Source: a virus (Duplodnaviria; Caudoviricetes). From it: a stretch of DNA of 64,000 bases. A program made the translations under genes and the position numbers. Below the pieces are notes generated by a model. It was not told where the DNA came from. It saw only the letters and a program-made list of their open reading frames with translations, and did not search any database. The stretch lies in the IMG/VR virus record IMGVR_UViG_3300008262_000055. One strand, given 5' to 3'. Positions 15,431 through 59,176 of this stretch are shown here, in pieces. Position 1 is the first letter of the stretch; every line of letters starts with the position of its first letter.

Positions 15431-16176
15431 TTTATTTCCTCTAATGTAGGTGCGTAATTTCCCAAATGTTGAACAGTAATACTAGCGGCCTTAACGGCAA
15501 ACTTTATAGCGTCATTGATATTTTTTGTATCACACCATTTGTATGCTAGGGCAGCTAAAAAAGTATCTCCAGCACCGCACACATCACTGACTTCTACAGC
15601 CGGTGCTGGATGATTAATATCATGATGTATAGCTGTTGCTCCTTTATCCCCCAGTGTTACTATTAATCCAGTACACTCGCTTTTAACTTTGCTGTATTCG
15701 GATTCGTTGATCTTTACCCAGGCTCCTTGTAATCGTTCTAAGTCTGTTTTCTTTGTATCTACAAATACAGGAATTTTAGTTTCAATTAGTTCCTCTATTA
15801 GCTTATAACTTACTGTTCCCTTGTTGTAATCGCTAACAACAATAGCATCGTATACAGGAGGAATGGCTGTCTCAAACTCTAAAGGCGTTGATACAACATC
15901 GTCGTCTATTCTTATTATGTGTTGTTTACTACGGAGGTCAATTAATCTAGTTTTTGTACCAGTTTCTCCGTGAAGGTAATTAATTTTACACCCTAGTGCT
16001 TCTAAATTACGTGCCACATTTCCTGCCATTCCTGGTTTAGTTTCTTCGTGACTAAACTTAAACACTGGCACAGGAGCTTCGGGACTAATTCTGTCCACAG
16101 ATCCGTATCTATATACGTCTAGACAGTTATCGCCTATCAGCAATATCTTGAATGATTTTAGTTGTTGAGTGTCCAT
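15427..16176 (-). CDS. hldA: PfkB-family heptose-7-phosphate kinase (HldA / RfaE domain I)
   Basis: IGDNCLDVY.YG...RISPEAPVPV, GMAGNVARNL, VSDYNKG, DVCGAGDTF. Confidence 0.88.
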   Translation of the reverse strand: MDTQQLKSFKILLIGDNCLDVYRYGSVDRISPEAPVPVFKFSHEETKPGMAGNVARNLEALGCKINYLHGETGTKTRLIDLRSKQHIIRIDDDVVSTPLEFETAIPPVYDAIVVSDYNKGTVSYKLIEELIETKIPVFVDTKKTDLERLQGAWVKINESEYSKVKSECTGLIVTLGDKGATAIHHDINHPAPAVEVSDVCGAGDTFLAALAYKWCDTKNINDAIKFAVKAASITVQHLGNYAPTLEEIK

Positions 16177-16522
16177 CTATTCTATCAAAAAATATAATTT
16201 CGTCGCAAACTTCTTGGCCTACAATAGGTTTGCCCATGTAATCGCTGCCCTTAACCATAGTGTCGCAGGCCGCAACAAGATTTATGAGTTCCAAATCAGT
16301 GTCGAATATCACAACTTCGTCAACTGCTTTTAGATTTTTGAGCATGTATGCTCGATATCGTTGATTGTTGATTGGTCGAGAAGACCCTTTTAGGCGGCGG
16401 ACACGATCGTCTGAATCAATGCCAACCATAAGATGATCTCCTAAACTTTTAGCATAGTTTAGAAGATCTATATGTCCCGGATGTAATATATCAAAAGAAC
16501 CGTTAACAAAAATCAGACTCAT
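16127..16522 (-). CDS. hldC: Heptose-1-phosphate nucleotidyltransferase (HldC / RfaE domain II; start revised to ATG 16522)
   Basis: NGSFDILHPGH (HIGH-type), VGIDSD..VRRLKG..RPIN, VDEVVIFD, GHSTT. Confidence 0.82.
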   Translation of the reverse strand: MSLIFVNGSFDILHPGHIDLLNYAKSLGDHLMVGIDSDDRVRRLKGSSRPINNQRYRAYMLKNLKAVDEVVIFDTDLELINLVAACDTMVKGSDYMGKPIVGQEVCDEIIFFDRIDGHSTTKIIQDIADRR

Positions 16523-16556
16523 GCTGTAATTATACAGCAAAGAGTCTCTTTGTCAA
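16523..16556 (-). promoter_or_regulatory. Consensus sigma70 promoter overlapped by two palindromes; probably leaderless transcript
   Basis: TTGACA (16556-16551) - 16 nt - TATAAT (16534-16529) - 6 nt - ATG; palindromes at 16538-16552 and 16523-16538. Confidence 0.8.
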
Positions 16557-28617: not shown

Positions 28618-29555
28618 TTTTTGTGTTTTCCTTGTACGGCTTCTATAATATAATTTTGTATTTCTGGAGTCATAGTCATTATAGGTTCGTGTTTTCTATC
28701 AATGCGTTCATCCATGGTAATTCTAATAGGACTATATTCACGGGTTTCTTCTCCCATATCTAAAATTGTAAATGTTTTACAATCTGGGTAAGAAACATTA
28801 ATAGGATATGTTGACCCAAATAGCACAGTTGAAGGTTTGTCTACACAATAGGCCAAATGCTGTCCTAAGCTGTCACAGCCTAAGAAATGATCTGCGTATT
28901 TGATAATTGCTGCCCATTGACGCATAGAAACATTTTCTGGCATGGCGATTTCATCTTTGAATTTTTCATCAGTAAAATCAATTTTAAACTCACTCATTAA
29001 AATTACACCAAATTCTTTTTCCTGTAATCTTTTAATTAGAGCTTTTGTATCTTTAAATTCTATGCTTCGACTAGTTGAGTCAACTAACGAATCGTCAACT
29101 ACTTGTATTCCGCGACCAAAAGGTTGGAATACTACAATTTTACTTTTCTTTAATTGTTTTTTAACATCGCCAATCAGCTTGCGACCTGTTAATAGCTCGT
29201 CTTTGCTGAGAATCAATGTAGGCTTAGGCAATGCTCTAATACCTTTTTTATTAATTTCAATATCGAACGCCTGTGCTATAGAACATTTTTGATTATAGTA
29301 TTCCCATATCCTGTAGGGTTCTGGGCTAACAATATCTCGATCTTTGATCTTTTCTAAGAAAAGATGTTTATGCCATACATCATACGTTCTAGCATCGAGG
29401 GTGGGGTGACCTTTAAAAACATCTGTGCCGCCCTCGCAGATGATGATGAAATCCTTGTCTCCGGATTCCTGTTCGTATTTTTCAAATGCGGGTATTGAGC
29501 ATAACATACGGCCCGCACCACCGTTTAAAAAAAATGCTTTAGAGCGTTGTTCCAT
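28614..29555 (-). CDS. Glycosyltransferase family 9 (ADP-heptose heptosyltransferase-like)
   Basis: N-terminal GGAGRMLCSIPA; C-terminal AIIKYADHFLGCDSLGQHLAYCVDKPSTVLFGST matches the GT9 'D.G..H.A.A...P...LFG.T' pattern; ATGA-coupled to the carbamoyltransferase. Confidence 0.78.
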   Translation of the reverse strand: MEQRSKAFFLNGGAGRMLCSIPAFEKYEQESGDKDFIIICEGGTDVFKGHPTLDARTYDVWHKHLFLEKIKDRDIVSPEPYRIWEYYNQKCSIAQAFDIEINKKGIRALPKPTLILSKDELLTGRKLIGDVKKQLKKSKIVVFQPFGRGIQVVDDSLVDSTSRSIEFKDTKALIKRLQEKEFGVILMSEFKIDFTDEKFKDEIAMPENVSMRQWAAIIKYADHFLGCDSLGQHLAYCVDKPSTVLFGSTYPINVSYPDCKTFTILDMGEETREYSPIRITMDERIDRKHEPIMTMTPEIQNYIIEAVQGKHKK

Positions 29556-29638: not shown

Positions 29639-30286
29639 TTAAATTAAAGTTGGTAAGTTACTTGGGAATGGAATTTTCCAATGATCAACACCGGCGTAAA
29701 GTCTTTCCAAATCACGAAGCCATGCTATGTGAGCAGCAAAGGCTGTTCGGTCTTCATCTGTATAATCATTTATTTGTAGACTTTGTTCAATAGCTGTAGC
29801 TATATTTCTATAGTTTTCAATAAGACTTTGTTTAGTAACAGCGTGTAATCTATATTCTGGTCCTACAAATTGATTATTGATATATTTTAACGATTGGCCA
29901 TAAAAACATTGTCCAATTGATCCAGTATTATCATCGTAATGATATGTGTAGTTCCATTCGTTGCCGTCAGCATCGACTAAATCTGTCGAATAATCAGCAA
30001 CATCGCCAGTTTCATATGTATTCAACAAATAAGCGGCAGGAAACGGATGTTCGTTAGCGTCAATCAAATAAAATGTTGTTGCTGGATCATCATCTACAAG
30101 ATTATCAAAATCAATCTCTGCCAAAGACTCTCCTCTTCTAGCAATATATTTGATTTCGCCTGTAGCATCAATGACACAGATAGCGAAGTAACGAGGTCCA
30201 GTATAGACCGCATTCTGTACCTTGTTTAGAGCCGTGGTGTTTTTGTATGGCTCATCTGGTAATAAAAATGTAAAATTTTTTCTCAT
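29639..30286 (-). CDS. Probable tail-fibre assembly chaperone
   Basis: C-terminal DRTAFAAHIAWLRDL...WKIPFP resembles the phage tail-assembly chaperone 'YRqaLRDlP...WP' pattern; directly downstream of the Cys-rich genes; TAAATA at 30303-30308. Confidence 0.5.
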   Translation of the reverse strand: MRKNFTFLLPDEPYKNTTALNKVQNAVYTGPRYFAICVIDATGEIKYIARRGESLAEIDFDNLVDDDPATTFYLIDANEHPFPAAYLLNTYETGDVADYSTDLVDADGNEWNYTYHYDDNTGSIGQCFYGQSLKYINNQFVGPEYRLHAVTKQSLIENYRNIATAIEQSLQINDYTDEDRTAFAAHIAWLRDLERLYAGVDHWKIPFPSNLPTLI

Positions 30287-30305
30287 AATCTTCCTCTAAC
30301 ACTAT

Positions 30306-31274
30306 TTATGTAAAGAATCTAATTCTAACAGCACCCCATCCGCCGCGACCAGCATGGTCACGAACCCCTGGACATGGGCTTGTTGGGTATCCACCTGTTG
30401 CTGGTGGTGCGTAGTGAATACAGCCCTGCATTTCATAACATCCGCATTTTCTATCTGATCTCCAGCAATAGTTCATAGGAATGCCGCCGGTGGGCGATCT
30501 ACGCAATGCTGAAAACGCATTTACTTCCTGCATTAACGGTTGACCTGACCAGTTTGAATGTCTGTTGTCATCTTCAGCACCAAACGCTGCTACGTTATAA
30601 GGTCCGCAACTATAAAATCCTGCCGGAGATGCTGTGTGATATTGAAAACAGCAAGGACACTGTGGTAAGCAACCAAAGAATACTGAACAACTGAAATGAC
30701 CACAACAGTTTGTGTCACCGCCGTAAGCACAAGCAATCCAAATACCGTTAAAATAATTACAGATAACACCGCAGTTATCGTTAAATGGTCCTGTAAAACA
30801 GTGTGATTGGTTAACAAAGCAACAGAACAATGATGTTCCTGTAGAGCACATACCGCGGCCACCTGCTCCGCCCTGGGCACAGATACAACCGTTTTGAGCA
30901 GCAGCACACTGAGTCCAACATACTCCAGTAGGATCTGAACAACCACGGAAACACAATGCGGAACTGTTACCACAACTGTTACCAATAGTACCTCTTACAA
31001 AATCGGTTGAACTAACACAAATTGTTTTTTTAGAATAAGCACCTGCGTTACCTGGAGTACCTCCACCGCAGCAGCACATCTGTGCTCCGGATCCGCCAGC
31101 ACCCCATACTTCAATTACTGCTCTACCAGTTGATGGAGGATTCCAACAAAACCCGTTACAAAAGTTTGTATACATGGTACCTGGTGTGAACACATAGATT
31201 CTGCCTGTTTCTAGGTTTTCCTCTACGCGACCAGTTGTTCTTGATCTTATTAAATTTTGAAACGATGTAGGCAT
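30306..31274 (-). CDS. Cys/Gly-rich fibre-tip-like protein, paralogue 1 (about 33 Cys)
   Basis: IEVWGAGGSGA.MCCCGGG.PGN.GAYSKK...GRGGWGAVRIRF glycine-rich domain. Confidence 0.75.
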   Translation of the reverse strand: MPTSFQNLIRSRTTGRVEENLETGRIYVFTPGTMYTNFCNGFCWNPPSTGRAVIEVWGAGGSGAQMCCCGGGTPGNAGAYSKKTICVSSTDFVRGTIGNSCGNSSALCFRGCSDPTGVCWTQCAAAQNGCICAQGGAGGRGMCSTGTSLFCCFVNQSHCFTGPFNDNCGVICNYFNGIWIACAYGGDTNCCGHFSCSVFFGCLPQCPCCFQYHTASPAGFYSCGPYNVAAFGAEDDNRHSNWSGQPLMQEVNAFSALRRSPTGGIPMNYCWRSDRKCGCYEMQGCIHYAPPATGGYPTSPCPGVRDHAGRGGWGAVRIRFFT

Positions 31275-31285
31275 TATTTTATCTC

Positions 31286-32281
31286 TTATAAATCTCTTAC
31301 TGTACCATCTTGTACGAATCGGATACGAATAGCACCATGGCCGCCACGATATGCGTGATCACGCACATCGCCGCATGGAAATGGTGGTAATCCTGGAAAC
31401 CCTGGCGGAACAAATGGTATACATCCGTTACCGTCATAACATCCGCAAGTTCTACCGCCAGTCCAACATGAGTGAGCACCGTCAACACCGCGACCTGGTT
31501 GGCGTCCTGCTACGTTTAACCCATATAAGAAACCATTTAGTGCCATTCCGCTCCAGCTAGAGTGGCCGCTATCGCCCTCATTAGTGTAGGTAATTTCCGC
31601 ACCGCAATCGCTGTAATATCCCGGTGGCGTTGCTACGTGGAAAAATGTAGAACATGGACAGCTTGGTGTACATCCAAAGAAAGTAGCACGGCTAAAACCG
31701 CCTCTTGCGTTAACATCGCCACCAAACGCATCAGCACAACATGATGCTGTACCTGTTCCGTAGTTACAGATAATTCCACAGTTGGCATTAAATGGACCAG
31801 TTCCGCAGAATCCGCCAGCTTGGAAACAGCACCACATTGATGTTCCTGTAGAACAGAAAGTAGTACCTCCGCGGCCACCTTGAGCACACATACATCCGTT
31901 AGTTGTTGTAGAACGCCAGCATACACCTGTGGGTTCTGAGCAACCTCGGAAACATAAATCGTTTGAATTGCCGCAGCTAAATCCAATAGTTCCTGTAATT
32001 AAGCAGCCAGAAGCTACACAGATAGTTTTCTTAGAGTAAGCTCCAGGATTACCTGGAATACCGCCACCGCAGCAGCACATCTTAGCACCACTACCGCCAG
32101 CACCCCAAATTTCAACTGTAGCAAGTCCGCTAGCAGGAGCAATCCAACAAACTTCGCCGCACATCTTTGTTCGGACATTACCATGAGTGTATGCCCAAAT
32201 TCGACCTTGTTCGAGATTTTCTTCTTCGAATGCGATAAACGGTAATTTTGCCTGAACAAGACCTTTAAATGATGTTGGCAT
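31286..32281 (-). CDS. Cys/Gly-rich fibre-tip-like protein, paralogue 2 (about 30 Cys)
   Basis: Same motifs and same MPTSF start. Confidence 0.75.
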   Translation of the reverse strand: MPTSFKGLVQAKLPFIAFEEENLEQGRIWAYTHGNVRTKMCGEVCWIAPASGLATVEIWGAGGSGAKMCCCGGGIPGNPGAYSKKTICVASGCLITGTIGFSCGNSNDLCFRGCSEPTGVCWRSTTTNGCMCAQGGRGGTTFCSTGTSMWCCFQAGGFCGTGPFNANCGIICNYGTGTASCCADAFGGDVNARGGFSRATFFGCTPSCPCSTFFHVATPPGYYSDCGAEITYTNEGDSGHSSWSGMALNGFLYGLNVAGRQPGRGVDGAHSCWTGGRTCGCYDGNGCIPFVPPGFPGLPPFPCGDVRDHAYRGGHGAIRIRFVQDGTVRDL

Positions 32282-32282
32282 C

Positions 32283-33251
32283 TTATTGTCCCTCTATAAA
32301 TCTAATACGGATAGCACCGTGGCCGCCGCGACGACCGTGGTCGCGAACTTCAGGACATGGATTAGGAGGAGTTCCAGGATAACCTGGACCTACACCTGTG
32401 TAGCATCCTTCGTTGTCATAACAGCCGCAGCCGCCGCCAAATCCCCAACAGTACGACCAGGGGATGCCGTGTGTTGGTTGTCTTGACTGTGCGTTTAATG
32501 CTGATTGATGTTGATGGGCACCTTGGCCCGACCAGTTTGAGAATTCGTTGCTGTTTTCTGTACCAAATACTACAACTCCGCCGCATTTAGAAACATATCC
32601 CGGTGGTGTTGCTACGTGGTAGGTAAAAGAACAGATGCATGGGCCTTGACAGCCTAAAAATGCTGTACAGCTAAATCCGCCGCAACGGTTAACGTCGCCG
32701 CCGTAACCACAGGCAATCCAAATTCCACCAAAGTAATTACAGATCGTTCCGCAGTTATCGTTGTATGGGCCTCGAGAACAATATCCGTTAGCAGCAAAAC
32801 AGCAATATAATGATGTTCCTGTAGTACAGAAACTTCTACCGCCTGCTCCACCCTGGGCACATAAGCAGCCCGACGCCCCGCAGTTTCCTGTCCATGTTAC
32901 ACCAGTTGCGTCTGAGCAACCTCGGAAACAGATAGCATCTGCGTTACCGCAGCTAAATCCCACTGCTCCGCAGACATAACAGCCCGATTCTACTCGGATA
33001 GCTTTCTTTGAATAAGCACCTGCGTTGCCAGGAAGTCCTCCTCCGCAGCAGCACATACGAGCACCACTACCGCCAGCACCCCAAATTTCTATAACTGCTG
33101 TACCTCTAGCAGGGGCTTTCCAACAAATTTGATAGTTGGTATAGTTGTTGCCCGGTGTATATAGCCAGATTCTGCCACGCTCGAGATGTTCCTCGGTAGC
33201 GTAGATACCATCGCCTTTGATCTGAACTAAATTCCTAAATGATGTTGGCAT
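32283..33251 (-). CDS. Cys/Gly-rich fibre-tip-like protein, paralogue 3 (about 30 Cys)
   Basis: Same motifs and same MPTSF start. Confidence 0.75.
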   Translation of the reverse strand: MPTSFRNLVQIKGDGIYATEEHLERGRIWLYTPGNNYTNYQICWKAPARGTAVIEIWGAGGSGARMCCCGGGLPGNAGAYSKKAIRVESGCYVCGAVGFSCGNADAICFRGCSDATGVTWTGNCGASGCLCAQGGAGGRSFCTTGTSLYCCFAANGYCSRGPYNDNCGTICNYFGGIWIACGYGGDVNRCGGFSCTAFLGCQGPCICSFTYHVATPPGYVSKCGGVVVFGTENSNEFSNWSGQGAHQHQSALNAQSRQPTHGIPWSYCWGFGGGCGCYDNEGCYTGVGPGYPGTPPNPCPEVRDHGRRGGHGAIRIRFIEGQ

Positions 33252-46250: not shown

Positions 46251-49200
46251 TCATCCAAAAATTAATGCTGTAGTAATAGCTAAACCTTCTGCTTCTGAAT
46301 AAGTTATTCCTGTACCGCTACTGCCTGCTGCCGAAACCCATGTTACTCCGTCATATACTTCTACACGCTGGTCTGTGGTGTTATAACGCATCATTCCAGT
46401 TTCAAATAACACTCCCCGTTCTATGTCCGATCCCCTAGGAAGGACAAACCCGTTAGTACCGTTAATTTTAAAATATCCGGTACCTGTTTGATTAAACGAA
46501 GTTATAGCATCATTCTGTGTGTTTGTAATAGTGTTATTTCTAATAGCAAAAACACCAATGACTGTGCTACCAGTACCATTAGGAGCTAATATTAAGTTCC
46601 CGTCTGTATTGGTAGTAGAAATCGTATTACCTGTGATATTTATATTACCTATATCTACGTTACTTGTAGAAAATTGGGTAGCATTTAAGGTAGCACGATT
46701 AAGCCCGTTGATATAAAAGCTGATTACATTATCGTTAGCACCGGGTGTAGTTTCGGGGGTGATATATGTGTTTTCATCTAAATCATATACACCGTCTAAT
46801 CTACGCCAATTTGTGCCATCAAAACCTTCGTAATAATTGTCGTCGGTATTATATCTGATATAACCCGCTTGTCCGGTAGGCCGTTGTGCCTCAGTTCCTC
46901 TAGGCAATCTCACTGCCTGTGTACCTTGGAAATCTACTATACCGGTACCATTTGGTGCTATTATTAAATTAGTATCGGTTAGTGTAGATATCTGATTTTG
47001 ATTTACTATAACTGATTCTAATTCTATACCGCCGGTGCCGTTAGCTCGTAATTCTAAGTTGGTATTTGACGTATTTGTAGTAATCAAATTACCGCTGATT
47101 GTAATTGAACCTAAATTAATTATTGGTGCTGTTACCGAGCCTGATGCTACGATATCAGTAGTAGTAATATCTCCTGATACTGTTAGATTCTGTGCGATTT
47201 CAACGTTGTTAAACGGCACAATAATAATTCCGCCACCTGTAGCTTGGAATGTAAGGTCGCTACCAGGAGTAGTAGTTCTAATCACATTTCCTTCTACACG
47301 TATATTACTAAACTGAGCTGTTCCAGTAATATTCATGTTTCCGGTTAAATTATAAGCTCCGGTTTGATTTACTGTACCGGTATGATTAGCTACACCATTG
47401 TGAGTCAATGTGCCGGTAATTTGTGTATTGTTTAATTGTACATCTGTTGTAACTACCAACCCGCCATTAACAATTAGGTCGGTGTTGTCTATAACCACAC
47501 TGCCTGTACCGTTGGCACGTAATTCTAGATCTGAATTAGAAAGCGTAGTGGTAATTCTGTTACCGCGTACTACTATGTCACCTGTATCTATTTCATTAGA
47601 CTGTAAAGATCCAAATGTACCAACAACATTATTGGCATATAATGTACCGTTAACAAAAAGATCGTTTTCTATTAATACATCATTTTCTGGAACATAGATT
47701 ATACCCGAGCCCGGAGCATCTAATACTAGATTAAATCCGTTGGCAGATGAAATCTGATTACCGTTAATACGTATATCGGCTATTTCTGTTAGCCCGCTAA
47801 CATCTAAATTGCCGTTGAGTGTATAGTCGCCGGTTTGTGTAGTGTTTCCAGTATGATTGGTATTACCTATTTGTGTTAGTGTACCTGTTACATCTGTGTT
47901 TTGTAAATCTGTAATTCCAGAAACAGTTATATCATTTTGTATTAACACGTCAGCATCAGGAACAACCACATTGCCTGTACCATTAGCACGTAATTCTAAA
48001 TCCGAGTTTGACAGTGTAGTAGTTATAAAATTGTTCTGTATGCGAACATCGCTGGTCTGTACTATTTCTGTTTGTAAAATGGTTAGAGATAAGTTTTCAA
48101 CAGTCAACGTACCATTAACTGTTAGATCTTGACCAACAGTAACATCGTTAGATGGAACAGAAATTATTCCTGAACCGCTAGCAAATAATTCTAAATTGCT
48201 GTTTGAATCTGTTGTGTATAGTTGATTACCATCAATACGGATATCTTCAAATTGAGCATAGCTGGTAACTGTGAGATTTCCTGTTAGTGTGTAATCTCCA
48301 GTGTGTGTAGTTGTGCCCGTTTGATTTAAATCACCTGTGTGATTTATAACACCTGTAACATCTGTGGTGCCTAATAGCGTAGTAACTCCGGTCACTGTTA
48401 GGTCTTGATTTACATAAAGATCGCTGGTTACAGATACAATACCTGTGCCGTTGGCTCTTAGTTCTAGATCACTATTTGAATCAGTGGTTGATATTACATT
48501 ATTTTCTATTAAAATATTACCGTTGGTATACCTATCGGCAGTTATATCTGTAGCAACATTTAATGTATTAGAAGAAATATCTCCAACTACAACCAAGTCC
48601 CCAGTAACTTCAAGGTCAGTACCATCTACAATTACTTTACCAGTACCTGCTGCTCTAAGTTCTAGATCACTGTTTGATATGGTAGTTGTTATGAAATTGT
48701 CATCTATCAAAACATTTTCAAACTGAGCAGCATTTCCTACTGAAATATTTCCTGTTACGGATAAATCTCCAGTTTGTGTATAGTTGCCAACTTGTATAAT
48801 GTTGCCGTTTACAGTTAAAGTACCTGTGATATTTGTAACGGTTAAATTAGTATTTCCTATAACTTCTAGGTCTTCGTCAATTTGTACGTCACTCGCTGAT
48901 ACGTATATCTTTCCGGTGCCGTTTGACCTAAGCTCTAAATCTGAATTTGATAATGTTGTTGTAATCGTGTTGCTGTTGATTACAATATTTTCATTTCTAA
49001 TTGTAGTTGAAGTAACTGTGCCAGTATTGTTTATATTCACACCAGTAATTTGACCGTCGACTGTTAGATCTTGATCAATCTGTACATCGTTTGATGGAAC
49101 ATAAATCTTTCCTGTGCCTGCTGCTTCAAGTTGGAGGTCTTGATTGCTATTTTTTGTACGGATATTATTCTGTACAATTTCAATATTTTCAAGATCTAGT

Positions 49201-52200
49201 GAAGCTGCGAAGAATGAGCCACTAACACTTAGATCACCATTCTGTATCACATCGCCTGTGATGGTGCTATTACCAGTTAGATTTAAAGCACCTACGATAT
49301 TAGTTGTTTGAAGATTTGTAGTACCAAGTACTGTAAACGTATCATTAACTTGTAAATTGTTGCTAGGTATAAGGACTTTACCAGTGCCTGCTGCGGATAA
49401 TTCTAAATCACTATTTGAATCTAATGTTGAAATCTTATTATCTACAATTTCAATGTTATCAGCAGTTAGTCTGTTAACAAAAATCTGTCTCCAACGCTCA
49501 ACAGTTGTTCCTAGGTCGTATGTATCGTTTAATTTAGGAATAATGTCGCTGTCAATCCTAGCTTCTATGTTGACAGAATCTGTGGTTTGATCGCCTATGG
49601 TAATATTGCCGCCAATCGTTACATTACCTGTTACGTCAAGATCGCCTGCGATATTAACATTGTTTAAGAAATTAACTTCACCTGTAAATGAATTGATATT
49701 CATTACTTGAGTCAGTGTTTCTACAGTATTATTTGATATACGGAAATCGCCAGTTTCAATTTTAGTAGCGTCGATATATGTTTGATTTACGCCGTCATTG
49801 AATAGCAAACTGCCTGTTACTGCTACGTTAGAGTTACTAAAAATAACTTCGCCAGTATCTTGATTAATATAAAACTGATCGCCTACACGGAAATCGCCTT
49901 TGTGATCAACCGATGTATAATAAATCTTAGCACGATTAGTTTCAACTACTTCGTTGGCTTGTATAACTGTGGTAGGGTCATTATTAGAGTCTCCTCCGTT
50001 GCCAATGTAGGCTAAGTTTTGTCCAATGAGATACGCAATAACGCCGTCGCCGTCGCCATATGCTCCATAGTTGCCGTATACGCAGGCAGAGCCAATACTT
50101 CTTAATTCAGCACCAAAGTCCGAATAGTCAGCAAAATCTATAGCAGAAGCAGTTCCGCTTGTAGTTGTATTTCTGATGTCTTGTGTAGTGTTACCGTCAT
50201 CTAAAATGATAGTTGAATTATTTGTACCATTAAAATGTAATAACAATACTGTTGAAGTATCGCTGGTAAAGGCTGCTGTAGGTACAGTTACTGAAGTAGT
50301 ATATTTGGCTACACCTTTGACTACACGCAGTTCGTCAACATAACCAGTTGATGGAGAACTGCCAGTCCAGCTTGCTCCAACTCTCAATGGTCTTTCTGGA
50401 TAATTGTTAGCATCTGTATAGGTAGTAGGTGTTACGGTTCCGTTAACAGCAAGTTTAGTTACTCCGCCGACTCTAAACAGTGCGATATGATTAAATGTAC
50501 CTGCGGTACAGGCCGCACTTGATGTAATTCTATAGGCATTACTAACAAACAATCTAATGTTGCCAGCAGCGTTCATTTCAAGGTATACCGCTGTGTCGTT
50601 ACTAGCTGTTCTACAGTCTAATAATACCTGCTGTATTCCTAGGGCAGTTGGTCTCCAGAAAAATTCAATAGTAAAATCACCAGTACCGTAACCAAAATCT
50701 GGTTGACTAGAATATGTGATAAAATCCCCAGTGCCGTCTAATACTAAACTTGCTGTGCCAAATTTTTTCTGTGCTGTGCTTAGTTTAGCGTCACCGCCTA
50801 ATGATACTGTTTTGCCTATGCGATCTTCTGGAGTCTCCCATCCTAGACTCTTACCGTCAATATTATAAAAATCCCCGTCTATACTTTCAATAATACCACT
50901 AGCAAGTACTGTGGTTCCGTCTGTGTCATAATAACTTATAGTATCGCCTACTTGCCAAGTTCCTGTAGTATTTGAAATTTTTATTCGAGTCTTTCCATCG
51001 CCAGCAAACCCATCGTTGCTGCTGAATAAACTTATACCTTTGTTGGCATAATAAGTGAATGAATTTAACCATTCTACTCTAGCACCGTTGGTAGCCGATA
51101 GAGCATCTACGCCAGGAGTGATAAATGTTACAGAATGGAATAACATTGATGCTTCTCTAGATGTAGCAGTAGCATACGCACCGTCTACATAAGCACCTTT
51201 ACCTGCGTCTGCTGATCCAAATCCCAAAGGATCGCCTACGCCAACTATAGTACCTTTGGTTAATACTGAAATGTTTCTTACATACGGTGATCTAGTTGTT
51301 ACTTCAAAATCTGTAGCAAAACGGAAAGCATAACCGTTGTCTGGAAATACCCTGTTGCCACCATTACAGCTAAATGTTAAGTTGGAAAGGAAAACTCTAT
51401 CTCCAAGGCTAGCAGTTCCGCCGGTGTGTGTTAGTACCAGGACGCCTGTAGTATGAGTATAAGTTGCTCCTGTAATGTTTCCGCTGCTGCTGTCAATAAA
51501 TTCAATAGTTCCGCCGCTAACATAAGCATGAGCGAACGGTGAAGTTCCTACGTCTACTGTAGTTGTTCCGGGTGCTGCTGAAGTAACTGTAAAATAATTT
51601 CCGCCGCTATAAAAATCTGCTACAGTTAAATCTTCTACGGTTGTTTCTCCGTTCATTAAGAAACAGTCATTGTATTCTGTAGCAGTAGTTGGTACAATTC
51701 TTACGGAGCGTATACCTGTGCCTTTTACCGTAACTCCTACAGGAACTTCTAACGGAAATGCCTCTTCGTAAACTCCGGGATAAAGATATATGGTTGTTCC
51801 GGCAGGGGCTATGCTCAAGGCATATTTTAAAGTTCTTAAAGAATCGTTTGGATGTTCGCCTTCATGTGTATCGTTGCCGTTAACTGCTGACACATAAAGC
51901 ATATTTCCGGGAAGTGCTGAAATATTAACACCGTCAATAATTAAATTCTGAGAAGTAATTATATCAGCGTATAAATTTCTAGTCCAAACATCGTACCAGC
52001 GTTTGCCGCCTGTAATCGGGTTTGATCCTATATTGTATGCTTCGTTAGCATCAGGAATTATGTTACTGTTAATTTCTGCGTTGAAAGTAATAGTATCAGT
52101 AGTAGCATCTCCTAATACAATATTACCGTCTGCGGTAATTGCTCCATCAACTTGTAGATCTCCAGCAACCTGTACTCCAGACTTGATGTCTATTATACCA

Positions 52201-52586
52201 GTACCACTTGGGCGTATTTCTAAATTAGCATTAGATTCATTAGTAGCTATGATATTATTAAAAATATCTATTGAATCTATGGAAAACTTACTGGTTCTTA
52301 GAGCAGAACCTTCTGGCAGATTAAAAGTTAAATCGCCGTCGTATGTTATCGTGTTTGGTGAAAATAAGAAGTCTCCAATTTGTGCCGTAGAGCCTGTGAC
52401 TTCTAAATTTGTTGTGCGGGTCGTGCCGTTTACTTGAAGTTCGTGACTAGGAGTAGCAGTCTTTATGCCGATTCGCCTATTGTTAACATCAAGATAAAGT
52501 AGGTCGGTCTCAAAGGCCAGATCCACACCTTGGCGTAGAAGGTTAGCCTTTAAGAGCGGACCGCTAATTCGACCAAGCTGGCTCAT
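46251..52586 (-). CDS. Giant fibre, 2111 aa, with LamG/ConA-like lectin domain
   Basis: About 14 N.I.T..SNSDLEL.A.GTG shaft repeats; FGTASLVLDGTGD...DFTIEF...HIAL...GYVDELRV...LLLHF LamG module. Confidence 0.85.
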   Translation of the reverse strand: MSQLGRISGPLLKANLLRQGVDLAFETDLLYLDVNNRRIGIKTATPSHELQVNGTTRTTNLEVTGSTAQIGDFLFSPNTITYDGDLTFNLPEGSALRTSKFSIDSIDIFNNIIATNESNANLEIRPSGTGIIDIKSGVQVAGDLQVDGAITADGNIVLGDATTDTITFNAEINSNIIPDANEAYNIGSNPITGGKRWYDVWTRNLYADIITSQNLIIDGVNISALPGNMLYVSAVNGNDTHEGEHPNDSLRTLKYALSIAPAGTTIYLYPGVYEEAFPLEVPVGVTVKGTGIRSVRIVPTTATEYNDCFLMNGETTVEDLTVADFYSGGNYFTVTSAAPGTTTVDVGTSPFAHAYVSGGTIEFIDSSSGNITGATYTHTTGVLVLTHTGGTASLGDRVFLSNLTFSCNGGNRVFPDNGYAFRFATDFEVTTRSPYVRNISVLTKGTIVGVGDPLGFGSADAGKGAYVDGAYATATSREASMLFHSVTFITPGVDALSATNGARVEWLNSFTYYANKGISLFSSNDGFAGDGKTRIKISNTTGTWQVGDTISYYDTDGTTVLASGIIESIDGDFYNIDGKSLGWETPEDRIGKTVSLGGDAKLSTAQKKFGTASLVLDGTGDFITYSSQPDFGYGTGDFTIEFFWRPTALGIQQVLLDCRTASNDTAVYLEMNAAGNIRLFVSNAYRITSSAACTAGTFNHIALFRVGGVTKLAVNGTVTPTTYTDANNYPERPLRVGASWTGSSPSTGYVDELRVVKGVAKYTTSVTVPTAAFTSDTSTVLLLHFNGTNNSTIILDDGNTTQDIRNTTTSGTASAIDFADYSDFGAELRSIGSACVYGNYGAYGDGDGVIAYLIGQNLAYIGNGGDSNNDPTTVIQANEVVETNRAKIYYTSVDHKGDFRVGDQFYINQDTGEVIFSNSNVAVTGSLLFNDGVNQTYIDATKIETGDFRISNNTVETLTQVMNINSFTGEVNFLNNVNIAGDLDVTGNVTIGGNITIGDQTTDSVNIEARIDSDIIPKLNDTYDLGTTVERWRQIFVNRLTADNIEIVDNKISTLDSNSDLELSAAGTGKVLIPSNNLQVNDTFTVLGTTNLQTTNIVGALNLTGNSTITGDVIQNGDLSVSGSFFAASLDLENIEIVQNNIRTKNSNQDLQLEAAGTGKIYVPSNDVQIDQDLTVDGQITGVNINNTGTVTSTTIRNENIVINSNTITTTLSNSDLELRSNGTGKIYVSASDVQIDEDLEVIGNTNLTVTNITGTLTVNGNIIQVGNYTQTGDLSVTGNISVGNAAQFENVLIDDNFITTTISNSDLELRAAGTGKVIVDGTDLEVTGDLVVVGDISSNTLNVATDITADRYTNGNILIENNVISTTDSNSDLELRANGTGIVSVTSDLYVNQDLTVTGVTTLLGTTDVTGVINHTGDLNQTGTTTHTGDYTLTGNLTVTSYAQFEDIRIDGNQLYTTDSNSNLELFASGSGIISVPSNDVTVGQDLTVNGTLTVENLSLTILQTEIVQTSDVRIQNNFITTTLSNSDLELRANGTGNVVVPDADVLIQNDITVSGITDLQNTDVTGTLTQIGNTNHTGNTTQTGDYTLNGNLDVSGLTEIADIRINGNQISSANGFNLVLDAPGSGIIYVPENDVLIENDLFVNGTLYANNVVGTFGSLQSNEIDTGDIVVRGNRITTTLSNSDLELRANGTGSVVIDNTDLIVNGGLVVTTDVQLNNTQITGTLTHNGVANHTGTVNQTGAYNLTGNMNITGTAQFSNIRVEGNVIRTTTPGSDLTFQATGGGIIIVPFNNVEIAQNLTVSGDITTTDIVASGSVTAPIINLGSITISGNLITTNTSNTNLELRANGTGGIELESVIVNQNQISTLTDTNLIIAPNGTGIVDFQGTQAVRLPRGTEAQRPTGQAGYIRYNTDDNYYEGFDGTNWRRLDGVYDLDENTYITPETTPGANDNVISFYINGLNRATLNATQFSTSNVDIGNINITGNTISTTNTDGNLILAPNGTGSTVIGVFAIRNNTITNTQNDAITSFNQTGTGYFKINGTNGFVLPRGSDIERGVLFETGMMRYNTTDQRVEVYDGVTWVSAAGSSGTGITYSEAEGLAITTALIFG

Positions 52587-52692
52587 TCGCTCTCCTTTTC
52601 ACCCCGTGTTTCACGGTTAACCACCTTACATTGCGGGTTTACCACAGTTTAACCATACAAGGATTGGTCGTCCTTGTAATCAATAGTATTTA
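52587..52692 (-). ncRNA. Candidate structured 5' leader RNA (about 95 nt) behind a TAAATA promoter at 52687-52692
   Basis: Stems UACAAGGA/UCCUUGUA, GGUUAA/UUAACC, UGUGG/CCGCA, CCGUG-AAA-CACGG, then AAGGAG RBS. Confidence 0.55.
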
Positions 52693-52705: not shown

Positions 52706-55700
52706 TTAACCAAGTAGGATGGCGTAGATCTCATTTAGCTCTTGTATTTCTGCTAAAGTAGCGTTTGTTGATGTACCTGCTAGAGTAGAGGTATTGAATC
52801 GAATATCACCAACTTCGGGCATTGCTGGTCGACTATCAGAATCGCCGGTGGGTATTACTAGTGCTGTGGTTGTGTTAAATTTAATGTATCCAGATCCGGT
52901 ATTTTGTAAAACCATATTTTCTGTAGGATCTGTATTAGTTAATGTAGTACCGGTAAACAGAATATCACCCATAACAACATTTAGGGTATCTGGTATGAAT
53001 TTTGAAATAGTGGTTGAGGTATGTAGATATAGATCAGTCGACGATGCTCTTTGATAAATGCCTTCAGTGTATGATAAAGAACTAGGATAGTCAATGACAA
53101 AAGTCATTGTTGTAACATCCCAGGCTGTGCCTAGAGTATAGTTTCTTATAAATGTGTTTGATCCGTTGCTTATAATGGCCCAAAATGCTGTTCCGTCATC
53201 GTTAAACGCTTGTCCTTTAGCATAATATCCTGTAGGAAGTGAGAAAGTATATGTGGTTGGCCCAGTCATGCCAACTATTGTCCAAGCTGTCGCACAGGTG
53301 TATACCTGAAATGATACTTGACTTACCGCAGTGTTCCGATTTATTTCATAAAATTTTGTTCCGTCAGCATTGAACCAAGGTTGAGATAACGCAATTATTC
53401 CGATATTTACTTTATTGATATGGCTAGCCGTTGTTATATCCCAAGGGGTTGATAAACTATATTCAAAAACAAAAACATTAAGATTAAGAAATCCACCACC
53501 ATTGCCCATAACCCAAAATTTTGTGCCATCGTATTTAAAATAGGGCCCTGTATTGTTTAACGTTCCCATACCGCCAACGGTTATAGCATTTAGATCTTGA
53601 ATTGAAAAGGTTGTATGATCTCCAATTGACGAAATATCCCATGGTGTTGATAAGGGATAAGAAACCACATTGCGATTGTTATAAGAAAATGCCACAGTTC
53701 CGTCAGGTTTAAAAAATATTCCTCTTAGAGTTCTTGCGGTAGCCGGAGCACTTAACATTTGTCCGGACGAGTCTATACTGTAGACTATATCCCCATTAAT
53801 GCCGCCCGGTGTTAAATTTATGTCACTGTTGCTGATGCTAGAAATAGTGTTACCACTGAATAGCAACGACCCTGTTAATAGTGCTGTAAGATTAACTGTA
53901 GAACTGTTAATACTCATCCTAGAAACATTGTTTACTCTAAAATCTAAAACATCAGTATCTAATGCTCTTACAGAAGTAGCACGATTTCTAGAAAAAATAC
54001 CCCCGTAAGTTATAGCACCGTTGTTAGTCCAACCTTCAAATCTAGATACAGAGGTATTAAATCTTAATTCTCCTGTTAGACCGGTTAATTTATTGAGACT
54101 GGTCCCTGTAGGTAATTTAACAGCATCGGTCTTATCAAAGTCTACTATTCTGCCAGTAAACGGAACCACATTCAAATTAGCATTAGTATCTACCGTAGAT
54201 ATGATATTGTTTAAGATACTGGTTTTTTCTAATATAACTCTACCAGTGCCTGACCCTAATAGATGTAAATTACTGTTTGATAGTGTGGTCTCTATAAAAT
54301 TATCTTTGATACGGATGTCGTCGTTAAACAATGTATCTGTGAGTATAGTTGTACCCGTAATGTTCCTAGAAAATATATCGCCAGCAACTGACAAATTCTG
54401 ACTCAGTAAAGCAGAATCATTTAGCAAGATTTTAGCAGAGCCTTGGGCTCTAAGATCAATATTGCTGTTTGAGGTAGTAGTGGCAATTCTAAAATCAATA
54501 AAGTTATAATCTTCAAATAGAGCTTGACCGTTGGTTGTTAAATTACCGGTTAGATTATATTCCCCTGCTAGATTATATGCTCCAGTATGTTGTTTTGTTC
54601 CGGTTAATCCAAATATGCCATCAATAGCCGTAGCTGTAAAAGTAGAATTGCCAGTTAAGTTTAATTGTCCTGTAGCAATTTCTAGTGTAGGTTGTACAGT
54701 CACTCTTCCGGTACCGTGTGCAGCTAACTCTAGATCTGTGTTTGAAGTAATTGTTTCTATGTAATTGTTTTGGATTCTGATCTGATCAGTTTCATAGATA
54801 TCGCTGGCTACGTCATTAGGGAATGTTATGTTCTGTACAGCTATGTAAGCGTCATTTACAGTGAGATCATTTTCTATAACTACATTAGCATTCGGTATTA
54901 CAATATTGCCGATCCCGCCCGATGCTATTAATTCTAAATCTGAATTTGAACTAGTAGTAGCAACCGTATTTCCAGATATAATTACATCGCCGTTGGTAAA
55001 CTGATCTGCTATCAAATCCCCTGTAATACTCACATCGCCAGTCTGGATAATGTTTCCAGTTTGGTTTAACTGTCCTACTAATACTAGATCTGTTATCTGA
55101 GTATTCAGTAATGTCGATGTTCCAGAAATGGTAAGGTTATTGTCAATTTCAAAATTGTCAGTGATATTAACTTGACCAGTACCGTTAGCACGTAATTCAA
55201 GATCAGCGTTAGATACTGTGGTTGTAATAAAATTTTCTTGTACAAGAATATCATCGACAAAAATTGATAATCCTGTCGCCTGCGTTCTAACAGTTAGATC
55301 ATCAGAAATTAACTCGCCTTGTATTTCTAAATTGTTTTCAATTATTAGGTCGTCATTGAATACGACAAGTCTAGCTGGTTGTGCCAATAATTCAATATTT
55401 GTGTTAGATGATAATCTATTTCCTTCTATTCTTAGATTTTGATATTGGCCGGTTCCTGATACTGATAAAAATCCCTGTATTGTAGTAGCACCCGTAATAT
55501 CAGCATTGCCTATTCTTACTAGATCGTTAGTGTGTGTTACCGTAGCTGATATGTTTAAATCTAATAAGTTGCTAGATCCCAAAACTGAAAGATATGTATC
55601 AGCAATTAAATCAGTGTCTACTATGTTTAATAATCCAACAGGGTCTAATACTAAATTAGTGTTTAAATTATTAGATTCTATCGCATTACCTGTGACGGTA

Positions 55701-58700
55701 ACACCGTTTAAAATCATAGCAGACGATGTTACTTGATATGCTATAGATGCTAGATTAGTTGAAATTGTATTTTGTACTGATACATTATTGTCTACAAGAA
55801 CATTTTCCTGTAACAAAACTTTTCCCAAACCTGCTGCTTGTAATAATAAATCATTATTAGCTAGTGTGGTTGATATTACGTTGCCTTGAATAGAGATATC
55901 TTCAAATTCTATGTAATTAACATTTAAATTATTAGATATAGCAAGATTGCCAGTAATTGCAGCGTTGCCGGATAATATGATCTCGCTAGTGCTGTTTATA
56001 GAATCAACTGTAATTGATTTTAAATTTGTTGTTCCGTTTACGGTTAAATCTTGATCTATTAGTAGACTATCAGTTTTTACTTTTCCTGTGCCGTCGGCAT
56101 TTACTATTAAATCTTGTGCGGGTGTTTCTATTACGTTTCCGTATATTTTAACTCCCGCATCAAAAATATCTGATGTTATCTGAGAGAGTTGTACGTTAGA
56201 CGAATTAATATTGTTGTATATTAAATTTTGATCTATTTGTACATCGTTAATAGGCACATAGATATTTCCAGTGCCGTTAGCACGTAATTCAAGATCTGAA
56301 TTTGATTGTGCTGTAGATATTACATTACTATCAACAGATATGTCGCCAAAACTTAAACTAGGAACTGATAATGCGAGGTTGTTAGATAACTGATAATCGC
56401 CACTCACTGTTGTATTGCCTGTGAGTATTTGATTTCCAGTTTGTGTAAATGCTCCTAAGATATTTGTATCTTTGAGATTTAAAATATTAACAGCATCAAA
56501 CCCTGTCTCTACTTGTAATGCGTCAAAGATAACTTTTCCTGTGCCTGCGGCATATAATTCTAAATCACTGTTACTAGATTTAGTATAAATTTTATTGTCG
56601 TCAAATACAATCTCACCAAAATCGGCTTTACCTAACCAGATAGAATTCCAAGTTAGTACTGACGAGCCTAATGAAGAAACATTAGGATATTTAGGAATAA
56701 TATCACTATCAACCTCGCTGGCAAATGTTACAGTATCTATAGCACCAGCATTACCAATGTTGATAGTACCATCTATGCTAAGATTTCCTGTTAGATCTAG
56801 GTTACCTGCGATATTACTAGTTTGTAGTGTTTGCGGAGCTACCGCAGATTTAATGTTTAAGTCGCCTGTAGCAGTTGATAATAAATTACCCTGAAATATA
56901 ACGTCACCGGTTTCAATTTTTTCAGCATTTAAAATTGTTATATCAGTGCCATCTGAGAAAATAATTTCATTAATACCGCTGACACTTTGTCCAATACCAT
57001 TAAATGTTACAAGTCCGGTTTCTTGGTCTACAAAAAATGCTTCGCCTACACGGAAATTGCCATTATGGTCATCACTTTGCCAGTATATTCTAGCATTGTT
57101 TAGGGTAACAGTTTCATTGACTTGTATAACTGTAGTAGGATCATTTGTGACATTAGTACCTGTGCCAATGTAGGCAAAGTTATGATTAATCAGATACATC
57201 AATACACTGTCGCCGTCGCCCTCGGCACCAACGTTGCCATACACATTAGCAGAGCCAATACTCCTTAATTCTGCTCCATAGATTGTAGTAGATCCGTCTG
57301 AGCTTAATCTTCCTAGACTACCGTTAGTAGCATACAGACCTTTACTGGCAAAATATGTAAATGAATTTAACCACTCGACTCTAACACCGTTAGTCATGTA
57401 TAGTCCAACAGAGTTAGGAACTATAAATGTCACAGAATGGAATAACATGCTGGCTGTTATTGACTGCGGCACTACAGCACTACCATCAACTAAAGCACCT
57501 CTACCAGCGGGTGCTGCGGCAGATCCTGTAGGAGATGAAAATATCGGAATACCAACACCGCCAACTAGTGATGTAGTTACATAAATTCTCCACTGATTAG
57601 TATTAATTGGGTCTTCAATTATATAATCAACAATGTATATTGTGCCTGCTACATTAATAGTCCACCCTGCTTCTACAGTAGTTTCAAAGTTAGCCGGTAA
57701 ATTAGTTTTGAAATATGCTACCCATTTTTCACCAACTGAACTTCCTGAGGTATCCCAAATATCGTTTGTAATGATCTGTGTTGTTCCAACATCTGGATAG
57801 AAGCTAATAGGTTTAAGCTGACCGGCTGGATTAAAAGTTGTATCAACGGTCATTCTCCACTCTGTTGGAGATAAAGGTTCGGTGGCAATTGATATAACTG
57901 TGTAGAATAGAGGAGGATTAGGATACCTATCAATAACTGCGGTTTGACCTACTAGCGAATCTACAAGAGCTTGGCTGTAAAATGTTTTAGATAAAGTTAC
58001 ACTATCACTAGTCAATGACACGCCAGTGGGTGCTGGGCCAACTGTGATATTAGTAGGTGTTAATGTTCCGGTAACTTCTTGTGTTATAACAGTTATGTTT
58101 TGTACATATGGCGATCTTTCAGAAGCATCATATCCATCAGCAAATCTAAAACCGTACCCTTCGTTGGTTGTTTCGTTATAAAAGAAATCTCTTACTGTGA
58201 GATTTGAAACAGTTGATCCAGCATTAAGTAAAAAACAATCTTTAAACTCACTGCTAGAGTCTGGTTCAACAATTACAGTTCTAATGTCTGTACCGTTGAC
58301 TGTAACACCGGCTGGCACTTCTAACGGAAATGTTTCTTGATATACTCCTGGATAGATAGTAACCGTGTCACCGTTGGTGGCAAAACTTAAAGCATGTTTG
58401 ATAGTTCTAAATCCGCCGAGCTGATGAGTACCGTCATTCCATATACCACTGTCTTCACCTAATGTACTAACGTAATATGAATTTCCCGGTCTAAGAGCTA
58501 CGTTAGGATTAATATTAGCTACAGAAGTAATATCTTCAGTGATTAAGAATTCGCCGTTGATTAACTCAGTGTGTAATTCATTCCATTTTGTATCTGAAGA
58601 ACCAATGCTATAAACTTCATTCAACGTAGGTATTAGGTCGCCTATTATTTCTGCGGTAAATGCTAAGGTGTCAAGGGTATTATTATCACCGAATGTAATA

Positions 58701-59176
58701 TTGCTCTTTAATGTTAACCCGTCATTTCCTTCTATGTTTCCCGCAATCGTAGCATTTCCGTCAAGTAATACTATACCTGTACCGTGAGGCGATAGCTCTA
58801 TATTTTCATTGCTAATAACGCCTTGAATATAGTTGTCATTGAAAATTAAACTGGGAGTTTCTAAAATGTCAGCAAACAAAGTGCCTGTGGCATTTATAGT
58901 TACATTGCCGGTATAGCTGGTTATAGTTCCAGTATCTCCGTCAAGGTAGAGATTAGTTAACTGTGCATCATTATCAACTATTAACCCTACAGTGGATATA
59001 GTTCCGTCAACTGTAAGTTCTCTAGGCATAGCATTGGTATTGATACCAAGCCTGCGTGAATTTACATCGAGATAGAGATTGTTATCTCCAAACTGATTTT
59101 CAAAGACAAGGTCCACTCCCAACCGTTCAAGGTTGGCCTTAAGCATTGGACCGGAAATTCTACCTAGATCTGCCAA
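52706..59176 (-). CDS. Giant fibre, 2156 aa (paralogue of 46251..52586), TTG start
   Basis: LGRISGP.LKANL.R.GVDL.FE start, about 16 shaft repeats, Y.L.T.WD propeller insert; AAGGGG RBS; TAAATA at 59195-59200. Confidence 0.85.
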   Translation of the reverse strand: MADLGRISGPMLKANLERLGVDLVFENQFGDNNLYLDVNSRRLGINTNAMPRELTVDGTISTVGLIVDNDAQLTNLYLDGDTGTITSYTGNVTINATGTLFADILETPSLIFNDNYIQGVISNENIELSPHGTGIVLLDGNATIAGNIEGNDGLTLKSNITFGDNNTLDTLAFTAEIIGDLIPTLNEVYSIGSSDTKWNELHTELINGEFLITEDITSVANINPNVALRPGNSYYVSTLGEDSGIWNDGTHQLGGFRTIKHALSFATNGDTVTIYPGVYQETFPLEVPAGVTVNGTDIRTVIVEPDSSSEFKDCFLLNAGSTVSNLTVRDFFYNETTNEGYGFRFADGYDASERSPYVQNITVITQEVTGTLTPTNITVGPAPTGVSLTSDSVTLSKTFYSQALVDSLVGQTAVIDRYPNPPLFYTVISIATEPLSPTEWRMTVDTTFNPAGQLKPISFYPDVGTTQIITNDIWDTSGSSVGEKWVAYFKTNLPANFETTVEAGWTINVAGTIYIVDYIIEDPINTNQWRIYVTTSLVGGVGIPIFSSPTGSAAAPAGRGALVDGSAVVPQSITASMLFHSVTFIVPNSVGLYMTNGVRVEWLNSFTYFASKGLYATNGSLGRLSSDGSTTIYGAELRSIGSANVYGNVGAEGDGDSVLMYLINHNFAYIGTGTNVTNDPTTVIQVNETVTLNNARIYWQSDDHNGNFRVGEAFFVDQETGLVTFNGIGQSVSGINEIIFSDGTDITILNAEKIETGDVIFQGNLLSTATGDLNIKSAVAPQTLQTSNIAGNLDLTGNLSIDGTINIGNAGAIDTVTFASEVDSDIIPKYPNVSSLGSSVLTWNSIWLGKADFGEIVFDDNKIYTKSSNSDLELYAAGTGKVIFDALQVETGFDAVNILNLKDTNILGAFTQTGNQILTGNTTVSGDYQLSNNLALSVPSLSFGDISVDSNVISTAQSNSDLELRANGTGNIYVPINDVQIDQNLIYNNINSSNVQLSQITSDIFDAGVKIYGNVIETPAQDLIVNADGTGKVKTDSLLIDQDLTVNGTTNLKSITVDSINSTSEIILSGNAAITGNLAISNNLNVNYIEFEDISIQGNVISTTLANNDLLLQAAGLGKVLLQENVLVDNNVSVQNTISTNLASIAYQVTSSAMILNGVTVTGNAIESNNLNTNLVLDPVGLLNIVDTDLIADTYLSVLGSSNLLDLNISATVTHTNDLVRIGNADITGATTIQGFLSVSGTGQYQNLRIEGNRLSSNTNIELLAQPARLVVFNDDLIIENNLEIQGELISDDLTVRTQATGLSIFVDDILVQENFITTTVSNADLELRANGTGQVNITDNFEIDNNLTISGTSTLLNTQITDLVLVGQLNQTGNIIQTGDVSITGDLIADQFTNGDVIISGNTVATTSSNSDLELIASGGIGNIVIPNANVVIENDLTVNDAYIAVQNITFPNDVASDIYETDQIRIQNNYIETITSNTDLELAAHGTGRVTVQPTLEIATGQLNLTGNSTFTATAIDGIFGLTGTKQHTGAYNLAGEYNLTGNLTTNGQALFEDYNFIDFRIATTTSNSNIDLRAQGSAKILLNDSALLSQNLSVAGDIFSRNITGTTILTDTLFNDDIRIKDNFIETTLSNSNLHLLGSGTGRVILEKTSILNNIISTVDTNANLNVVPFTGRIVDFDKTDAVKLPTGTSLNKLTGLTGELRFNTSVSRFEGWTNNGAITYGGIFSRNRATSVRALDTDVLDFRVNNVSRMSINSSTVNLTALLTGSLLFSGNTISSISNSDINLTPGGINGDIVYSIDSSGQMLSAPATARTLRGIFFKPDGTVAFSYNNRNVVSYPLSTPWDISSIGDHTTFSIQDLNAITVGGMGTLNNTGPYFKYDGTKFWVMGNGGGFLNLNVFVFEYSLSTPWDITTASHINKVNIGIIALSQPWFNADGTKFYEINRNTAVSQVSFQVYTCATAWTIVGMTGPTTYTFSLPTGYYAKGQAFNDDGTAFWAIISNGSNTFIRNYTLGTAWDVTTMTFVIDYPSSLSYTEGIYQRASSTDLYLHTSTTISKFIPDTLNVVMGDILFTGTTLTNTDPTENMVLQNTGSGYIKFNTTTALVIPTGDSDSRPAMPEVGDIRFNTSTLAGTSTNATLAEIQELNEIYAILLG

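Follow-up and report, generated by a model that had tools for sequence, protein, structure and literature searches.

In Escherichia coli, the alpha operon (S4), rpsO (S15) and rpmI (L20) carry pseudoknotted operators that include the Shine-Dalgarno (SD) sequence, the start codon or early codons. Ribosomal proteins bind rRNA, and mimicry of this target explains their binding to the leaders. In phage T4, the ssDNA-binding protein gp32 acts on a compact H-type pseudoknot upstream of the ribosome binding site (RBS) in the leader of gene 32, where an unstructured A+U tract with UUAA repeats covers the RBS. A T4 review of 2010, which also treats the S15 operator, considered this leader as possibly the only viral pseudoknot in translational autoregulation (PMC3014915). 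The T4 genes e, soc, 49 and I-TevI have their SD or AUG in hairpins that form on long early transcripts only and vanish on the late transcript (PMC3014915). In the tisB +42 mRNA, a 5′-proximal pseudoknot lies ahead of a sequestered RBS, and initiation depends on processing of the mRNA and on a single-stranded standby site, at which an antisense RNA acts (PMC7708055). Riboswitches are documented but rare in phages (PMC9004378). Translational feedback on tail or baseplate proteins has hardly been described in tailed phages. Here we describe a leader that, according to comparative data, represents a real, conserved RNA family without a catalogued match, which can be regarded as a variant of the pseudoknotted translational leaders and which probably controls the amount of a virion part that is made.

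The leader was found in a stretch of 64,000 nucleotides (IMG/VR record IMGVR_UViG_3300008262_000055; hereafter the window). Judging from its gp23-type capsid protein and the TAAATA boxes upstream of most of its structural genes, the window derives from a T4-like jumbo phage. The nearest cultured relatives by capsid protein are the PA5oct/GAP32/Phosso group and Vibrio 2.275.O (69-75% identity). The leader lies on the minus strand between two paralogous giant genes, both of which match baseplate-wedge/fibre PHROGs. The downstream gene (46251-52586, minus strand) encodes a fibre/baseplate-wedge-like virion protein of 2111 aa, which matched PHROGs 13163, 1469 and 19601 (“baseplate wedge subunit”; E-values 2e-178 to 1e-125) and contains a LamG domain (Pfam Laminin_G_3). 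The upstream paralogue (2156 aa; 52706-59176, minus strand) starts with the same N-terminal peptide, has an 18-nt leader without the RNA and was used as an internal control. Elsewhere, the window has three genes for Cys/Gly-rich proteins of 322-331 aa, which are paralogous and stand in tandem with a 215-aa gene (29639-32281 and 32283-33251), as well as sugar-modification genes (13678-16540 and 26809-29555); by these names, which were given by eye, such genes would be typical of a host-recognition region.

The T4-type late promoter box TAAATA of the leader is located at 52687-52692. In T4, late transcription starts roughly one helical turn downstream of the box (PMC2988020), and we infer a start near 52681. 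The initial annotation had counted about 95 nt from the box to the ATG; the distance from the box to the AUG (52586) on the minus strand is 100 nt, and about 95 nt is the length from the inferred start. Its statement that other late leaders span 5-34 nt does not hold, as a second leader of about 81 nt exists at 62484-62404. The whole leader was no more stable than shuffled sequences (z = -0.13 to -0.69). All stems listed in the initial annotation can be formed on paper, but the 5′ hairpin alone was more stable than shuffled sequences. The case for a structured leader rests on covariation rather than on energy.

A protein-based search yielded a first set of 34 distinct core-bearing leaders, and subsequent pattern and protein searches brought the collection to 227 leaders recovered by one descriptor, plus about a dozen that the descriptor missed, in four lineages. 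Because a DNA pattern predetermines some of the bases in the loci that it recovers, invariance was judged on the protein-fetched sets. The RNA is conserved in more than 225 distinct leaders, nearly all of which belong to the same fibre/baseplate gene of uncultured T4-like aquatic jumbo phages. Nearly all copies have TAAATA upstream and a gene starting with M-x-x-G-R-I-S-G downstream: the box preceded 167 of 167 gene-linked cores in the descriptor scan, and 119 viral pattern matches, except for two chance matches, had the same gene downstream where the contig reaches it. Five large contigs each carry two paralogues and one core, which stands before the second paralogue. Orthologues of the 2111-aa protein range from 350 to more than 3900 aa and have N- and C-terminal modules common to all, indicating that the RNA tracks the N-terminal module and not the variable middle. 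This module and its paralogue are the neighbours shared by both the freshwater and marine lineages, and the other neighbours differ. The N-terminal module is absent from Phosso, Vibrio 2.275.O and PA5oct, in which a loose core pattern was no more frequent than the control level, and blastn and tblastn searches against cultured phages found neither the leader nor the full module. The motif and its gene also occurred on contigs of bacterial metagenome-assembled genomes assigned to Neomarinimicrobiota (L200 and L203, with identical leaders) and Dehalococcoidia (L202), which are probably mis-binned phage contigs. Literature searches found no description of this leader RNA. It may correspond to an unnamed entry in a catalogue of 8495 IMG/VR motifs (Fremin 2023), the main text of which names no tail or baseplate leader (PMC10690425).

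The central element of the leader is a 31-nt H-type pseudoknot (52618-52648, minus strand). Stem S1 pairs UGU with GCA (52646-52644 with 52634-52632), and stem S2 pairs AACC with GGUU (52639-52636 with 52622-52619). Loop 1 is GGU, a bulged base is at 52635, and loop 3, with UGUAA at 52630-52626, contains a YGNNA element and takes optional inserted stems. On a 193-row tree built from protein residues outside the motif, compensatory events numbered 16 and 15 at two S2 pairs and five of five at the first S1 pair; of 2145 column pairs, these three ranked highest among those paired in at least 85%. By pair counts, 93.8% and 100% of cells were paired, a level reached by none of 500 shuffles, compared with 15-66% for slid controls. 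The core is near-invariant within lineages. Across all four lineages, its shape and only about seven of its bases are retained, with changes in both stems and in loop 1: the loop varies among GGU, UGU and UU, and S1 became AGU/ACU or UGU/ACA in the fourth lineage. A distance of exactly 5 nt separates the core from the TAAATA box in 67 marine leaders. The core is conserved both there, at the 5′ end, and 28-60 nt inside the leader, suggesting that it is more than an end protector. A candidate 3-bp helix between the linker and bases after P4 was paired in 64-70 of 72 members of one lineage, with one-sided changes only and three wobbles in the window.

The initial annotation had asked for covariation in relatives, which proved strong, and had proposed a cis-regulatory RNA, such as an operator or switch. 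The regulatory proposal agrees with the covariation, the nearly constant downstream gene and the coverage of the SD and start, but the fold drawn for it has mostly been replaced. Its hairpin UGUGG-UAAAC-CCGCA is present in the window; covariation supports only its outer three pairs, 63 of 193 rows lack the G-N pair, and the unpaired base between S2 and S1 may be A, C or G, which breaks the 5-bp hairpin in about one third of relatives. The closing helix GGUUAA/UUAACC is not conserved, since its two G-C pairs hold in 33 and 21 of 72 members of one lineage and in 3 of 47 of the other. The same applies to a GGU/ACC extension. An AUG-UAA minigene in loop 3 was also rejected because its AUG varies to ACG, AGG and CUG.

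Searches with Rfam 15 covariance models at gathering and E-value thresholds (E up to 10) gave no relevant match in the window, and there was none at the leader in 25 related loci, in line with the earlier failure to match it to a riboswitch or ribozyme; the pistol, twister, hatchet, hammerhead and HDV-like models were likewise silent in the window and related loci. The c-di-GMP-I (GEMM) riboswitch has a three-way junction in which GGYAAAC pairs with a distant GC. In the present RNA, the partner of GCR is the upstream YGU and that of AACC is GGUU, and GEMM gave no Rfam match. The T-box receives the tRNA end in an invariant UGGN bulge and has a specifier loop in its Stem I; it too had no Rfam match, and the UGGU of the core is UGU or UU in marine lineages. 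Apparent resemblances to pistol, hatchet, SAM-II, the cobalamin B12 box and RNase P were discarded after comparison by eye with the covariation.

Upstream of the core lies P1 (52656-52678, minus strand), the 8-bp hairpin of the initial annotation (52678-52671 with 52663-52656; z = -2.44), with the loop CGACCAA at 52670-52664. In 96 distinct relatives P1 had a mean z of -3.0 (mononucleotide shuffles) and the loop motif was unpaired in 87. All six pair types occurred at most stem positions, so that the sequence is free and the stem is kept. P1 is missing in some lineages, and the core there begins 5 or 9 nt after the box. Downstream of the core, P4 (52604-52616, minus strand) has a CCG/CGG stem, with one compensatory variant (L108), and a 7-nt loop, UGAAACA. 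It had been drawn as CCGUG-AAA-CACGG, which can form in the window; only CCG/CGG is kept among relatives, and the loop varies like a T-loop. Nine loop variants in the window's lineage all read UGNRA+2, and FMN and cobalamin T-loops have the consensus YGNRA+2 (10.1101/2022.12.26.521914). By sequence alone, P4 is thus of the T-loop type (a 7-nt loop with YGNRA followed by two free bases). In other lineages P4 is replaced by other hairpins.

The element extends about 35 nt into the ORF. The SD AAGGAG (52597-52592), a spacer and the AUG (52586-52584) occupy 52584-52597, of which 52594-52588 forms the 5′ strand of helix P5. The opposite strand is coding sequence at +25 to +35 (GGUCCGCUCUU, 52552-52562), and the P5 loop holds UUGGUCG at +11 to +17 (codons 4-6; 52570-52576), which is complementary to the P1 loop. 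In minimum free energy folds of the window and three relatives (L009, L020 and L025), codons 9-12 were paired with the SD or start in all cases. The energy of this duplex was -9.5 to -10.9 kcal/mol in genes with the leader, compared with -5.7 kcal/mol in leaderless paralogues. Codon choice also differed. In 118 leader-bearing genes, Gly was GGU in 114 (background 44%) and Arg was CGN in 114 (background 41%); the rare Pro codon CCG was used in 98 of 107 (background 11.5%) and the rare Leu codon CUC in 91 of 112 (background 2.6%). The leaderless paralogues encode a similar peptide with free codons. We attribute the constraint to the two pairings, namely P5 and the kissing helix between the P1 loop and codons 4-6.

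The kissing helix is a 7-bp complement in the window (-8.8 kcal/mol). Its loop, GACCA, had been noticed before and tentatively assigned to an adjoining UGGUU, a partner present in 13 of 119 relatives; the conserved partner is in the coding region. This prediction was tested by searching two collections for cores followed by a non-GGU Gly codon, which together with four found earlier gave 38 distinct leaders. None of the 38 kept GACC. GGA-CG genes had the loop GUCCA (14 leaders) and GGA-AGA genes had GUC or GUU loops (13 leaders), so that 27 of 38 were compensated; the remaining 11 had lost the loop. The compensated leaders fell into three clades with support of 0.81-1.0; the parent nodes are weak (0.31-0.56), and two of the three may therefore not be independent. 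In two further leaders (L414 and L419), the otherwise invariant Arg is Gln (CAA) and GGUC is kept, as loop pairing predicts. Pairing of the P1 loop with the UGGU of the core is sequence-possible but weaker (-4.6 vs -7.7 kcal/mol), and UGGU is unchanged when the loop changes; it was rejected as the main partner, although it may form as an alternative state. Comparison thus supports the fold as well as the two pairings that cover the initiation region.

By analogy, the leader may work like the T4 gene 32 and ribosomal-protein operators, from which its structured RBS, its fibre gene and the lack of a sequence match set it apart. Like the gene 32 leader, it is a compact H-type pseudoknot upstream of the RBS in the mRNA of a T4-like phage, and translational control is likely here as well. 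However, the RBS is paired with the ORF rather than lying in an unstructured tract, the coding region forms a kissing helix with a 5′ loop, and the product is a late fibre/baseplate protein rather than a ssDNA-binding protein. Like the ribosomal-protein leaders, it opens an operon that encodes components of a large assembly, but the best Rfam L20 hit (26.5 bits vs a cut-off of 58.7) was off the core. We know of no comparable RNA target for a fibre. As in T4 e, soc, 49 and I-TevI, the SD/AUG of a T4-like late gene is in a helix; unlike in those genes, every strand here is downstream of the late promoter, which implies a block on the late message itself.

The reading we tentatively prefer is a translational operator, the closed fold of which is stabilised by a protein, probably surplus virion protein. 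By comparison, the leader folds into P1, the compact pseudoknot and the T-loop hairpin, the first dozen codons fold back on the SD and start (P5), and the P1 loop kisses the loop of P5 at +11 to +17, a site within the footprint of the ribosome. This closed form would block 30S binding but be only marginally stable by itself; a protein that recognises the core of the pseudoknot would stabilise it and so switch translation off. The best candidate would be surplus, unassembled product of the gene family, acting through its N-terminal module, which the leaderless paralogue also has; the module is a candidate because it is common to lineages whose other neighbours differ. Synthesis would thereby follow assembly, as with ribosomal-protein leaders, and translational coupling may carry the control to the closely spaced genes behind. 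Shape plus few fixed bases is a pattern typical of protein sites. The few fixed bases of the core, its occurrence at any distance from the 5′ end and its association with one structural gene are best fitted by a protein-bound operator. The action of T4 gp32 on its leader pseudoknot (PMC3014915) and autoregulation by the P22 scaffold (10.1101/2022.12.13.520362) are precedents. Other candidate proteins were sought in five incomplete contigs: CsrA was not found, nor was RegA in a search run without a positive control, and a CAGGA loop is present in one lineage only. Against the operator are the product, in which profile, structure and atlas searches gave no clear match to an RNA-binding fold, the modest start block and an ORF-less copy on L279. 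The AlphaFold model of a 350-aa orthologue was poor (pLDDT 61; below 50 at the N-terminus), and Foldseek found no match to it at E 0.001.

The block was estimated from secondary structure with the kissing helix left out. The energy needed to open the start was 8.2 kcal/mol in the window's lineage, compared with 6.8 after synonymous recoding, and 11.8 compared with 7.6 in the marine lineage; leaderless genes showed no difference, and the 8.0 kcal/mol of the window's own gene was no higher than the 8.2 of its leaderless paralogue. A modest block by secondary structure fits a state that needs stabilisation. In a less probable explanation, no ligand is involved: the closed start would simply set a low, constant output of a minor virion protein, and the pseudoknot would serve as an S1/30S standby site and 5′-end protector. 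The pseudoknot does lie at the inferred first transcript base in 67 marine leaders, the 5′ pseudoknot of tisB is needed for S1/30S binding ahead of its sequestered RBS (PMC7708055), a layout similar to the present one as far as our inferred 5′ end allows, and tertiary contacts of an ordinary pseudoknot could account for the fixed bases of loop 3. However, S1 lacks sequence specificity, which contrasts with a core that hardly varies within lineages. A long single-stranded stretch for standby binding is not evident, and neither the processing nor the antisense-targeted site of tisB was seen here. A weak SD would suffice for a constant low rate, whereas the SD here is strong, and the leaderless paralogue manages without the leader.

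The operator reading is also challenged by the T-loop-like elements, which suggest a riboswitch-like tertiary fold. A host metabolite, ion or signalling nucleotide would then bind the pseudoknot/T-loop fold and lock the kissing helix over the start, an explanation that we regard as improbable. The architecture resembles that of cobalamin or preQ1 switches (a compact pseudoknot, T-loops and a kissing helix at the RBS), and the P4 loop and the loop-loop helix at the initiation region are shared with cobalamin/FMN modules; the present RNA is much smaller, its kissing partner is coding, P4 is replaced in other lineages and Rfam gave no match. An expression platform able to hide the SD and start is present by comparison, the freshwater lineages could also form a local GG/CC hairpin as an alternative, and one of two paralogues has the leader and the other does not. 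These phages also carry a known riboswitch: a glnA glutamine riboswitch (RF01739, 50 bits) precedes a short ORF at 2603-2648 of L069, about 250 nt upstream of the promoter of a marine leader. On the other hand, few bases are invariant over all lineages and loop 1 varies, the RNA was never found before a metabolic gene among the relatives, and the three true matches on GTDB contigs precede the same phage gene. We regard as doubtful a phage-specific riboswitch class in which the pseudoknot/T-loop core would sense a host small molecule and decide, through the loop-codon kissing helix, whether the second of the two fibre paralogues is made together with the genes that follow; if true, both the class and its role would be new, and virion composition would depend on host state.

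One copy lacks the gene. On the minus strand of L279 (about 2481-2535), a late promoter, a 5′ hairpin and a full long-form core precede a terminator-like hairpin with a U-run, and a fibre ORF is absent. This copy is flanked, by names given by eye, by an ALA-synthase-like gene and an HNH-like ORF upstream and a methyltransferase-like gene downstream. It is possibly a free-standing RNA and is the only sign that the core acts as an RNA itself, as a self-cleaving or processing element, a decoy or a virion-associated RNA, with ORF pairing being secondary. We consider this quite unlikely: no second promoter-core-terminator copy was found among more than 225 leaders, Rfam ribozymes did not match, and the synonymous constraint and loop-codon covariation tie the core to translation of the fibre gene. 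The more than 225 variants, the well-supported fold, the codon covariation and the leaderless paralogue make the balance of virion parts in large phages directly testable.

A second conserved late leader, in the same operon, suggests that these phages have several such elements. It lies at 62484-62404 (minus strand), before a 135-aa gene (62403) that follows the capsid gene, has no Rfam match and is unrelated to the main motif. In 45 distinct relatives, it has a covarying stem (CUG/CAG, CGG/CCG, CAG/CUG and GGG/CCC), a C-rich loop and, around UAGAA, another stem. The second codon reads GGA in 44 of 45, suggesting that the loop may pair with AUG-GG. On L255 and L318, a third type of leader, with a GGAGGUCC loop in a hairpin, replaces this motif upstream of the post-capsid gene. 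On L062 and L063 (about 2944-2994), the gene family of the main motif is preceded by a different, GC-rich leader of 51 nt without the core.
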